A stretch of DNA of 31,379 nucleotides from Chloroflexota bacterium (GTDB lineage: Bacteria; Chloroflexota; Dormibacteria; CF-121): NCBI GenBank assembly GCA_005889395.1, contig VBFX01000026.1, positions 1 to 31,379 on the forward strand, read 5' to 3'. Below are positions 1-6,414 of this stretch, in pieces (position 1 is the first letter of the stretch; each line of letters starts with the position of its first letter). The notes under the pieces are model-generated. The model saw nothing but the letters and a program-made list of their open reading frames with translations, did no database searches and was not told the DNA's origin. Both the position numbers and the translations under genes were made by a program.

Positions 1-47
1 TGGCATATGTTGTGGCCAGCACTGTCGGGAAACCCTACGGGCTGTGG
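1..47 (+). promoter_or_regulatory. Tandem NrdR boxes upstream of nrdJ (first box cut by window edge)
   Basis: ATATGTTGTGG (5-15) and ACCCTACGGGCTGTGG (32-47) resemble the NrdR box (acaCwAtATaTwGtgg). They are 32 bp apart, matching the known 31-32 bp spacing, and sit directly upstream of an RNR gene. Confidence 0.65.
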
Positions 48-53
48 TAAAAT
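45..53 (+). promoter_or_regulatory. Extended -10 promoter element of nrdJ
   Basis: TG-G-TAAAAT at 45-53, overlapping the second NrdR box. Confidence 0.6.
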
Positions 54-120
54 GCTTGACAGGCTTCATCCTACGGCATACGATGTGGGCCGCTCTCCAC
101 CCCACCCACGGAGGTTCACG

Positions 121-2727
<2,607 letters not shown>

Positions 2728-2921: not shown

Positions 2922-2982
2922 TCGCGAAAAAATTCTGAAAAATTCTGCTCACTGACCCGCCCGCGGCCGTCAGCACCGCCGC

Positions 2983-3036
2983 TCGCGAAAAAAATTGGGC
3001 CGAGAGTATGCAAAGCGGCTCAATTCATGCTATGGT
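2983..3036 (+). promoter_or_regulatory. Sigma70-type promoter with upstream A-tract
   Basis: ATGCAA (3008-3013), 17 bp spacer, TG-C-TATGGT (3028-3036); A7 tract at 2988-2994. Predicted start about 3043-3044. Confidence 0.55.
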
Positions 3037-3043
3037 CGCACTT

Positions 3044-3204
3044 AATGAGCGCGCAGCCGCGCTCTGATCGTCGCGTTGATCAGGGCGAGGGACTGAAGAA
3101 GGGCAACAGTCAAAGAACTCCGCGGACCACATCGATGAACGTCGACGTGTGGCTGTGCGGATCCCGAGGGTCGATCGCGACGCGCCGTCGCTCCCCTCGT
3201 TTTT
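3044..3204 (+). ncRNA. Candidate structured ncRNA or riboswitch-like leader, family not recognised
   Basis: Helices 3047-3053/3058-3064, 3060-3069/3078-3087, 3091-3095/3107-3111 and about 3120-3160. Ends in hairpin 3165-3199 followed by TTTTT. No convincing protein in this stretch. Confidence 0.45.
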
Positions 3205-3340
3205 CTCTCTCCACTTTGCTTCCGGCACCCGGCCTCGCCGGCGCCCGCGCGTCCACGGTACCCGTGGCGCTCACGCGCGTTTGGCGGCGGCGTCCAAGCG
3301 GCCGACCGGGGGAATCTCGCTAAGAAGGAGGTGAGCCCGG

Positions 3341-3406
3341 ATGGCCGCAAAGAAGAAAGCAGGCGGAAAGAAGAAAGCCGCGAAGAAGTCGTCGAAGAAG
3401 AAGTAG
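3341..3406 (+). CDS. 21-aa lysine-rich micro-protein (MAAKKKAGGKKKAAKKSSKKK)
   Basis: AAGGAGGTGA SD at 3325-3334; 11 of 21 residues are Lys; followed by its own terminator. Confidence 0.75.
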   Translation: MAAKKKAGGKKKAAKKSSKKK

Positions 3407-3431
3407 GTTAGCTTTTAGAGCTGACTTCAGA

Positions 3432-3461
3432 TACAGCCGGTGCCTTCGGGCGCCGGCTGTA
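3432..3461 (+). terminator. Strong stem-loop with UUCG tetraloop
   Basis: TACAGCCGGTGCC-TTCG-GGCGCCGGCTGTA, a 13-bp stem with one G-U pair. Confidence 0.7.
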
Positions 3462-3474
3462 GCATTTGTGGGCG

Positions 3475-3882
3475 ATGATCGATCTCGAGCGCGCCCGTCA
3501 TTTCCTGAAGGTCCGGCATGACGGCATCCTGGCCACCATCAAGCGTGATGGTCGCCCCCAGCTCTCCAACATCCTCTATTTCGTGGACGACGACGGCCGC
3601 GTAAAGATCTCCGTCACCCAGACCCGCGCCAAGACCCACAACCTTCGGCGCGACCCGAGGGCCAGCCTGCACGTCCAGGGTCGCGACCGCTACGAGTACT
3701 TAGTGGCGGAGGGGACGGCGCAGCTGATCGAGGGCGACGGGCTCGCAGAGGCGCTGCGCCACTATTACCGCAAGGTCCGCGGCGAACACCCCGACTGGGC
3801 CGAATACGACGCCGCCATGATCGCGGACCAGCGGCTGCTGCTCGCGATCTCGGTCGAGCGCGCCTACGGCTCGCTTCGCTAG
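3475..3882 (+). CDS. PPOX-class F420-dependent oxidoreductase (pyridoxamine 5'-phosphate oxidase family)
   Basis: GILATIKRDGRPQLS and KTHNLRRDPRASL motifs, about 135 aa. Confidence 0.85.
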   Translation: MIDLERARHFLKVRHDGILATIKRDGRPQLSNILYFVDDDGRVKISVTQTRAKTHNLRRDPRASLHVQGRDRYEYLVAEGTAQLIEGDGLAEALRHYYRKVRGEHPDWAEYDAAMIADQRLLLAISVERAYGSLR

Positions 3883-4110
3883 CTAGCGGACGGCCAGGCA
3901 GGTGACGGTCTTGAAGACGCCGTCGATCTTCTGGATCTTCTCGACGATGACCGATCCGATCCCGGCCACGTCGGGCGCCTCGACCGCGGCGATCACGTCA
4001 TATTCGCCGGTGATGGCGTCGGCCAGCTCGATGCCTTTGACGCCCTGAAGAGACCTGGCCACCTCGATCGCCTTTCCCGCCGACGCGTTGATGAGCACAT
4101 ACGCCCGCAT
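3883..4110 (-). CDS. Stand-alone Lrp/AsnC ligand-binding domain protein (75 aa)
   Basis: MRAYVLINASAGK...ITGEYDVIA...IQKIDGVFKTVTC with GGAGGG SD. This is the C-terminal part of track ORF 3883..4941. Confidence 0.85.
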   Translation of the reverse strand: MRAYVLINASAGKAIEVARSLQGVKGIELADAITGEYDVIAAVEAPDVAGIGSVIVEKIQKIDGVFKTVTCLAVR

Positions 4111-4173
4111 GACACCCTCCTGGTCGAATTTCCACCTCAGGATACGGGTTTGGCCGCCGCTAAGATGAAAGCC

Positions 4174-5217
4174 ATGACGTCCATGACGGCAGTGGTGAAA
4201 GCCGCTGCCGGTCCGGGCGCCGAGATCGACCAGGTCGACGTCCCCGAGCCGAAGGGCGCGGACGTCTTGATCGAGGTCGCGGCCTCCTCCATCTGTGGCA
4301 CCGACGTCCACATCTTCGACTGGAACGAGTGGGCCCAGCGCCACATCCATCCGCCGCGGGTGTTCGGTCACGAGATGTCGGGGCGGATCGTGGCTACCGG
4401 GCCAGACGTCAAAGCGCTCGCGTCCGGGACCTTCGTCGCCGCCGAGACCCATGTCGTCGACCACACCTGCCGCCAGTGCCGGCGTGGCCTCTACCACCTC
4501 TGCGAGAACACGCGGGTGCTCGGCGTCGATCGGGACGGGTCGTTCGCTCGCTACGTGCTGCTGCCTGCGGAGAACTGCTGGCGGAACGCCCCGGGGCTGA
4601 GCCCCGAGGTGGCCGCCCTGCAGGAGCCGTTCGGCAACGCGGTCCATGCCGCCACGGCCGGTGCGCTGAAAGACAACGCGGTGGCGATCTTCGGGCTGGG
4701 TCCCATCGGTCTCTGCGCCGTCGGCATCGCGCGCGCGGAGGGTGCGGCGGCGGTTTACGGCGTCGAGCCCAACCCCTACCGGAGGGAGCTGGCGGAGCGC
4801 ATGGGTGCCACGGCTGTGCTCGCACCGTCGACCTCGACGGTCGAGGACATTCGCAAGCTCAACGGTGGGGTTGGTGTGGATGTTGTCCTGGAAATGTCGG
4901 GCCATCCGGTGGCGATCGAGCAGGGGCTTCAGGTCCTCCACCGCGGGGGATGGATGAGCCTACTCGGCATCGGTGACCGGCCGGTCACGCTCGACCTCAA
5001 CGACCTGGTGGTCACGAAGGGAATCACGATTTACGGCATCTTCGGCCGGCGCATCTGGGACACATGGGAACGTACCTCGAGCTATCTCAGCACCGGCAAG
5101 GTCGACGTCTCGCCGCTCATCACCCACCGCTTCCCGCTCGACGACTTCCAGGAGGCGATGGCCCAGATGAAGAGCGGTCGATCCGGGAAAGTCGTGCTGC
5201 TGCCCAACGGTGGTTAG
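4174..5217 (+). CDS. tdh: L-threonine 3-dehydrogenase
   Basis: SICGTDVHI, GHE, AETH, EPFGNAVH, GIFGRRIWDTW motifs; directly upstream of kbl. ATG 4174 lies 7 nt after TAAGAT (alternative starts 4165 and 4183). Confidence 0.92.
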   Translation: MTSMTAVVKAAAGPGAEIDQVDVPEPKGADVLIEVAASSICGTDVHIFDWNEWAQRHIHPPRVFGHEMSGRIVATGPDVKALASGTFVAAETHVVDHTCRQCRRGLYHLCENTRVLGVDRDGSFARYVLLPAENCWRNAPGLSPEVAALQEPFGNAVHAATAGALKDNAVAIFGLGPIGLCAVGIARAEGAAAVYGVEPNPYRRELAERMGATAVLAPSTSTVEDIRKLNGGVGVDVVLEMSGHPVAIEQGLQVLHRGGWMSLLGIGDRPVTLDLNDLVVTKGITIYGIFGRRIWDTWERTSSYLSTGKVDVSPLITHRFPLDDFQEAMAQMKSGRSGKVVLLPNGG

Positions 5218-5226
5218 GAGGGTCAG

Positions 5227-6414
5227 ATGATCACTGAAAAGAAAACCCAGTTCCTTCTTGACGAGCTGGAGCAGTTGCGGCAGCAAGGGCTCTTCCGGCC
5301 CCTGCGGGTGCTGGGCTCGGCGCAGGACACCGAGGTCGTCGTCGATGGCAAGCACGTCCTCAACCTCTCGTCGAACAACTACCTGGGACTGACGACCCAC
5401 CCCCGGTTGAAGCAGGCCATGATCGAGGCCACCGAACACTGGGGCGCCGGCTCGGGCGCTGTTCGGACCATCGCCGGTACCATGACCGTCCACGAGGACC
5501 TGGAGCGCCGCCTCGCCGAGTTCAAGCACACCGAGGCCTCGCTCGTCTTTCAATCGGGCTTCACCGCCAACCTCGGCGTGCTCCAGTCGCTCGTCCGCGA
5601 AGGCGACGTCATCATCAGCGACGAGCTGAACCACGCCTCGATCATCGATGGCATCCGCCTGTCCAAAGCCGAGCGGTCGATCTTCAAGCATCGCGACATG
5701 GATGACCTCGAGCGGCATCTGGAGAAGCACCGCGACAAGCGGGTCAAGCTGGTGGTGACCGACGGTGTCTTCAGCATGGACGGCGACATCGCGCCACTGG
5801 CCGCGATCGTCGAGCGGGCCGAGCGCTTCCAGGCGCTGGTGATGGTCGACGACGCGCACGCCAGCGGCGTCCTGGGGGCGAATGGGCGCGGCTCCGTCAA
5901 CCACTTCGGCCTCGACGGACGGGTCGACCTCCAGATCGGGACGCTCTCCAAGGCGATGGGGGTGCTGGGCGGTTACGTCGCCGCCCCGCAAGCCGTTCGG
6001 GACTTCCTGATCCATCGAGCTCGGCCGTTCTTGTTCAGCACCTCGCATCCACCGGGGGTCGCGGCCGCCTGCATCGCCGCGATCGAGGTCCTTCTGGCCG
6101 AGCCGGAGCGCATCGAGCGGCTGTGGAAGAACACGGCTCGCTTCAAGGACGGTCTCAAACGGATCGGCTTCGAAACCGGCGCCAGCGAGACGCCGATCAC
6201 GCCCGTCATCGTGGGCAAGGGCTCGGTCGCCATGGAGTTCTCCGACCGCCTCTTCAAGCTGGGCGTCTTTGCCCAGGGAATCGGCTTTCCGACGGTGGCC
6301 GAGGGGCGGGCGCGGATCCGCACCATCGTGACCAGTGTCCATACGGAAGAGCAGCTCGACCGGGCGTTGGAGGCCTTCGCCACGGCCGGCAAGGAACTTG
6401 GCGTCATCGCGTAA
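5227..6414 (+). CDS. kbl: Glycine C-acetyltransferase (2-amino-3-ketobutyrate CoA ligase), PLP-dependent
   Basis: [33 protein letters not shown] and GTLSKA motifs; paired with tdh. Confidence 0.88.

Follow-up and report, generated by a model that had tools for sequence, protein, structure and literature searches.

The window, by which we mean the whole 31,379-nt stretch of DNA that was analysed, carries a leader and a Lys-rich micro-gene between nrdJ and the gene for a PPOX-class oxidoreductase (Table 1). Judged by its sequence, 3044-3204 is the front, least conserved half of a leader of about 297 nt that precedes the gene for a 21-aa Lys-rich peptide (3341-3406). The order nrdJ, Cys-rich ORF, leader plus peptide gene and oxidoreductase gene was kept in five of five genera of the family. 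Within one Ca. Dormibacterota family, 40 of 43 genomes carry the segment 3150-3470, among them 13 of 13 near-complete ones; it is single-copy in the source genome. The bearers of the 3044-3470 element are uncultured soil bacteria, and a literature search returned no description of this leader/peptide element. Three unpublished genomes (G018, G062 and G063) were used only in occurrence tallies and in one alignment row (L010), which has a 2-nt deletion and an early upstream ORF (uORF) stop and was excluded after the initial alignments; none of the conclusions depends on these genomes. The homologous leaders compared are kin, and hence not independent.

Table 1. Features of the leader/peptide unit and its neighbours, by position in the window.
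Feature	Position	Strand	Remark
nrdJ	7-2727		5' neighbour side of the unit
Small Cys-rich ORF, 46 aa	2781-2921	+	Directly 3' of nrdJ
A-tracts, UP-element-like	2927-2996	+	From sequence; similar tracts in most homologues and the sister family
Putative promoter: -35-like ATGCAA, 17-nt spacer, extended -10	3008-3036	+
5'-terminal (leaderless) uORF, 92 codons	3045-3323	+	Stop TAA 3321-3323; predicted to be regulatory, product unconstrained
5' hairpin	3047-3053/3058-3064	+	Transient; overlaps start codon of uORF; mutually exclusive with helix A
Helix A, 10 bp	3060-3069/3078-3087	+	Dominant after transcription
Upstream CGAGGG, proposed antiterminator	3086-3091	+	Private allele
Variable domain	3092-3164	+	Insertions up to about 140 nt, without stops in uORF frame
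Second CGAGGG copy	3165-3170	+
Hairpin B, proposed terminator stem, interrupted	3165-3199	+	-11 to -20 kcal/mol across homologues
CCCTCG	3194-3199	+
TTTTT	3200-3204	+
Pyrimidine-rich linker, including U5 run	3200-3217	+	Can pair with Shine-Dalgarno
Core hairpin, 94 nt, 32 consensus pairs	3219-3312	+	Near-invariant
Shine-Dalgarno AAGGAGGT	3325-3332	+	Predicted to be occluded by 3316-3320 or linker
Lys-rich micro-gene, 21 aa, 11 Lys	3341-3406	+	Unannotated
Probable 3' end: 13-bp GC-rich stem, UUCG loop, short U tail	3432-3467	+	Kept in all five genera
PPOX-class oxidoreductase gene	3466-3882		3' neighbour of the unit

The putative promoter has an extended -10 element, with TG at 3028-3029 and TATGGT at 3031-3036. 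TATGGT is kept in four of the five genera, with a weaker box in the fifth; a consensus promoter scan did not call this promoter. Its position places the likely transcription start at about 3044-3045, and the A-tracts upstream may act as an UP-like element. Jointly with the coupling model set out below, we consider it probable that 3044-3470 is a single transcription unit. Promoter and full leader recur as a partial duplication in tandem at L005 1008-1369 (genome G006, contig C14), where the peptide ORF is fused to unrelated sequence after four codons; this duplication is either real or an assembly artefact.

Several observations concern the surroundings. The Cys-rich ORF contains two CxxC-like pairs and one CC and is 55-97% conserved across all five genera, with broken copies in L039 and L076; it had no NCBIfam match and was absent from the protein collection searched. 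Internal segments present in relatives, one of them immediately ahead of the 'EGWRMGLK' motif, are apparently missing from the nrdJ translation, possibly through assembly deletions. Farther downstream (3883-6414), a stand-alone Lrp/AsnC ligand-binding gene (3883-4110, minus strand) is divergent from a zinc dehydrogenase and PLP enzyme pair that resembles tdh-kbl. A search for tRNA and tmRNA genes returned none.

Helices in the front half of the leader

The initial annotation had described competing helices in 3044-3204, and a sequence check confirmed all the coordinates it gave for helices and repeats. The competition between the 5' hairpin and helix A is real in silico. When the growing transcript was folded, the 5' hairpin had a probability of 0.98 up to nt 3080, and helix A took over (0.83-0.97) once 3087-3095 had been made. 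Homologues of three genera fit both helices, with 98.7% of cells paired for the 5' hairpin and 99.2% for helix A. A two-sided pair change was found in helix A only, not in the 5' hairpin, and helix A folded better on the plus strand in 30 of 31 homologues.

A further proposal was that the two CGAGGG copies compete for CCCTCG, making the region either a terminator/antiterminator switch that controls the peptide or a free sRNA of about 160 nt ending at 3204. We found this competition in the isolated 161-mer of the source sequence, in which the two folds lie only 1.6 kcal/mol apart (-64.3 kcal/mol and 16% for antiterminator pairing, vs -65.9 kcal/mol and 79% for the terminator), but not in longer transcripts or in homologues. 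Once the transcript extends beyond 3230, antiterminator pairing falls below 0.1% (0.01-0.04%). Of 69 distinct leaders, 4 have the upstream CGAGGG, and these 4 are nearly the same in sequence as the source leader; the usual allele is CGAGGA. The U5 tail occurs in 32 of the 69 and in none from the other four genera sampled. Two rows of the switch test (L038/L039) are invalid, their sequence windows overlapping. The 161-mer was no more stable than its shuffles (z = -1.06), a terminator scan made no call at hairpin B plus U5, and the predicted probability that the 5' end pairs at long range with the CGCUC bulge of the core was 0. Speaking against a free sRNA, 3044-3204 is only 32-84% identical to its homologues and its length ranges from 80 to 295 nt, there is no second -10 box between 3204 and the peptide gene, and the conserved core falls downstream of 3204. 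Both versions of the proposal now appear extremely improbable, a caution that an attractive switch seen in one genome can hang on one private base. The region resembles intrinsic terminator/antiterminator attenuators and riboswitch platforms in having, in this genus, a GC hairpin followed by U residues; it differs from them in that its antiterminator strand and U tail are unconserved and no Rfam aptamer matched. What survives, on the modelling presented here, is the broader idea that the region is a structured RNA likely to control the downstream peptide, though by a mechanism other than the CGAGGG switch; the initial annotation had overlooked the 5'-terminal uORF and the conserved core.

The core hairpin and the peptide gene

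Behind 3204, identity to homologues is 86-97%. In the core hairpin 99.8% of cells are paired, the stems and the CGCUC bulge are near-invariant in sequence, z-scores run from -1.6 to -3.8, and the plus strand folds better in 31 of 31 homologues. The pair-preserving changes seen in the core were five one-sided wobble changes and no two-sided, compensatory one, so that the predicted fold rests on energy, strand bias and z-scores rather than on covariation. At gathering and E-value thresholds, Rfam gave no match to the leader or core. The only sub-threshold match, to sX6 (17.6 vs 40 bits), lies over the peptide gene and terminator, and we rejected this identity because Lys codons plus the terminator explain the weak score. 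A covariance model of the core, searched against 151 genomes of the phylum under strict filters, 17 candidates being scored in each genome, matched in this family only.

The micro-gene is conserved with synonymous and in-frame changes. Its peptide is devoid of a hydrophobic stretch, had no Pfam, NCBIfam or PDB match and was absent from the protein collection searched. Very basic, low-complexity sequences are known from histone-H1-like Lys/Ala-rich proteins and tails (Chlamydia Hc1/Hc2, the HupB tail) and from the tiny ribosomal proteins bS22, bL37 and bTHX. The peptide shares this composition but differs in its length of 21 aa and in matching no profile or PDB entry; it is probably a histone-H1-tail-like, nucleic-acid-binding polycation. 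The source genome has a separate gene, which we take to be bS22-like, on contig C253. A second Lys-rich micro-gene, of 19 aa, lies on contig C256 of G000 (minus strand, near plus coordinates 4400-4460) and also occurs in G010; it has a strong Shine-Dalgarno sequence (SD) and a terminator of its own, and its leader is short, at about 60 nt.

Folding predicts that the leader hides the SD of the 21-aa peptide gene. The predicted probability that the SD is unpaired is 0.13 here (family mean 0.22), compared with 0.71 (mean 0.66) when the leader is forced single-stranded and 0.33 with a shuffled leader. Occlusion exceeded that in shuffles in five of six tested leaders and was absent in L039; for the source leader it is borderline, 5 of 40 shuffles being equally occluded. 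The predicted occlusion is modest and its partner differs among homologues: the linker, whose duplex with the SD region has -6.7 to -13.1 kcal/mol, is the main partner in several, and both it and 3316-3320 lie inside the uORF.

An upstream frame that stays open

The uORF begins with an ATG eight bases past the -10 box, at the presumed transcription start, and stops 2 nt ahead of the SD core and 20 nt before the peptide start. Leaderless genes leave a signature in the source genome, in which TANNNT stands 6-9 nt before 1.2-2.1% of ATGs, vs at most 0.22% internally. Across homologues the uORF has 74-139 codons. Its frame is open in 27 of 29 genome leaders, where shuffles predict 10.8 and the other two frames are open in one each; the distinct stop sites in these leaders number 0 in the uORF frame and 12 and 14 in the others. 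Further leaders from metagenomes gave the same pattern, with the uORF frame open in 39 of 40 (other frames 0 and 4) and the stop 8-21 nt before the peptide start codon in 38 of 40. On a tree, two stop gains were counted in the uORF frame vs 17.1 expected, and 25 and 17 in the control frames vs 19.0 and 24.9. Since the GC-rich core is nearly free of stops in any frame, this stop-avoidance signal stems from the 5' half. Multiple-of-three indels were dropped as main evidence, as several 1-2-nt shifts exist.

The frame is kept by several routes. Insertions of up to about 140 nt leave the uORF stop in place, and genus g3 retains the uORF exactly. All five genera read through the core, in different frames. 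In g2 the core is read in another frame with a stop at -8, from an ATG that was chosen after the fact, and in g5 the frame changes in the apical loop, again with a stop at -8. In g4 a first ORF ends after 41-42 codons at a stop that overlaps a new ATG (TGATG in L036, ATGA in L037), and the second ORF crosses the core and stops at -16. Overlapping stop and start codons are the usual signature of translational coupling (PMC6728339). Three leaders have a uORF that overshoots the peptide start codon (+8, +41 and +80).

It is very improbable that the uORF specifies a genuine protein, disordered and evolving fast. The frame does survive in-frame insertions in g1 and g3, and dN/dS is 0.62 in the N-terminal part, but over the whole uORF it is 0.95, genera differ in the frame in which they read the conserved DNA, and no family, cluster or Atlas match was found; we rejected a protein-coding reading on the overall dN/dS and the lack of family matches. 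We also rejected an amino-acid attenuator leader peptide, because the core frame differs between genera and no regulatory codon run is conserved. The uORF would be a clear natural case of an ORF selected to stay open while its product is unselected, and one in which a frame once broken is rescued by a stop/start relay.

Probable translation of the leader and alternative readings

We consider it probable, on the basis of modelling, that a ribosome on the uORF melts the structure that occludes the SD and so couples synthesis of the Lys-rich peptide to its own passage. In this model a 70S ribosome would start at the 5'-terminal AUG (3045), cross helix A and hairpin B and then the linker and the 94-nt core as it reads the 92 codons, and terminate beside the peptide SD. 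The pairings that hide the SD would be melted, and translation of the peptide would begin either de novo or by reinitiation. How much peptide is made would then depend on leaderless initiation and on ribosomes elongating across a very stable hairpin, and the exchange between the 5' hairpin and helix A, which overlaps the uORF AUG, may gate or time access to the start. Translation of the uORF, the direction of the coupling and the signal sensed are all inferred. Binding of 70S ribosomes at a 5' AUG is a described initiation route (PMC9031893, PMC4965119), as is the coupling of translation through unfolding of the RNA or through reinitiation (PMC12548453). Because the core is more invariant than melting alone would require, it may have an additional ligand or partner. 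On this reading, an apparently non-coding 300-nt RNA becomes a testable translational control device, and its leader may offer a handle on when widespread, unannotated poly-lysine micro-proteins are made.

Translational coupling between a leader ORF and a downstream gene that is locked by structure is known from tap/repA of plasmid R1 and from mok/hok (PMC4393325). As in those systems, translation of the upstream ORF apparently outweighs its product, and the ORF is kept open and ends at the downstream RBS; here occlusion of that RBS is predicted in most homologues, weakly relative to shuffles in some of them. The small size of the downstream product is shared with hok. The present locus differs in being chromosomal, in its long (74-139 codons) and leaderless uORF, in that an antisense RNA was not found, and in having as its product a Lys-rich polycation rather than a membrane toxin or Rep protein. 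5'-terminal uORFs have been described in E. coli 5'-uAUG mRNAs (PMC4965119), in mycobacterial polycysteine leaderless sORFs (10.1101/834739) and in M. tuberculosis B12-riboswitch uORFs (PMC11260477). The likeness to these lies in an AUG where an SD-led mRNA is presumed to begin and in a probable effect on the downstream cistron. Here, however, no conserved amino-acid-sensing codon run, known riboswitch or Rho was found, and the uORF crosses a near-invariant 94-nt hairpin over which the frame can change or be relayed. A search of five genomes, of which four are 94-95% complete, returned no Rho (PF07497), and the uORF is therefore unlikely to mask Rho sites.

Other mechanisms could draw on the same features. 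In translation-controlled attenuation, hairpin B and the U/C-rich linker would be a weak intrinsic terminator that the uORF ribosome blocks, an RNA of about 160 nt being released without translation. Hairpin B is indeed kept across the family and followed by U5 in 32 of 69 leaders, the g4 uORF stop/start junction sits on its 5' strand, and this lineage's terminators may have weak tails, the real 3' hairpin of the unit having a short U tail likewise. Such attenuation would be compatible with the coupling model. Yet four of five genera lack a U-run, among them g3 with its exact uORF, the stem of hairpin B has interruptions and falls far short of the 3' terminator in strength, and a uORF that runs about 120 nt past hairpin B to the SD is left unexplained; we regard attenuation as unlikely. 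It is decidedly unlikely that the core is itself the functional RNA, with the peptide, RNA polymerase or some other protein as its partner and with uORF translation switching its fold or protecting the transcript. Its near-invariant stems and CGCUC bulge would suit such a role, and the role may be vacant, as 6S RNA was not found in six genomes and Ms1 was not found in five genomes searched (the genomes for these and the Rho searches were drawn from G000, G006, G033, G035, G050 and G053). However, the core has no large central bubble, it always lies directly upstream of the peptide SD, and it is family-specific, whereas the peptide and the uORF layout reach a sister family with a different leader. 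With neither a model match nor such a bubble, we rejected 6S/Ms1 identity for the core. Control of translation by a cis-antisense RNA over the leader, in the manner of type I toxin-antitoxin loci, has mok/hok as a precedent and is hardly credible here: no minus-strand -10 box is conserved (best 15/31), and helix A and the core fold better on the plus strand. A type I toxin-antitoxin locus was rejected on the peptide, which has 11 Lys in 21 residues and no hydrophobic stretch, and on the lack of a conserved antisense promoter.

The coupling model was also compared with the sister family, f3, in which a pattern of SD plus peptide start was found in 53 of 73 genomes, with none in three other families. 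Most fetched f3 leaders are 130-250 nt long, structured and unrelated in sequence to the leader described here. An ATG lies 3-10 nt past the predicted start, and in 35 of 39 leaders its frame has no stop until 30 nt or less before the peptide start; this support is weak, because one control frame is open in 24 of 39 and the control frames have about half of the expected stop gains. The comparison is supporting, not strong, for a uORF layout shared with f3, some of whose peptide genes have short leaders without that layout. It is conceivable, though doubtful, that poly-lysine micro-genes of two Dormibacterota families follow one logic behind sequence-unrelated leaders, in which a long leaderless uORF, under selection for openness only, would drive a ribosome across structured RNA to the RBS, the polycation would follow the supply of free 70S ribosomes, and the invariant core would be where the peptide or some other ligand feeds back.

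In family f3, Lys-rich micro-genes frequently come in tandem (L098, L100, L101, L109 and L123), every copy under a separate promoter and with a separate leader and terminator. The f3 leaders L084-L117 represent a distinct leader RNA, conserved and structured, in which some changes are compensatory and to which no Rfam family matched; it is a candidate new motif.
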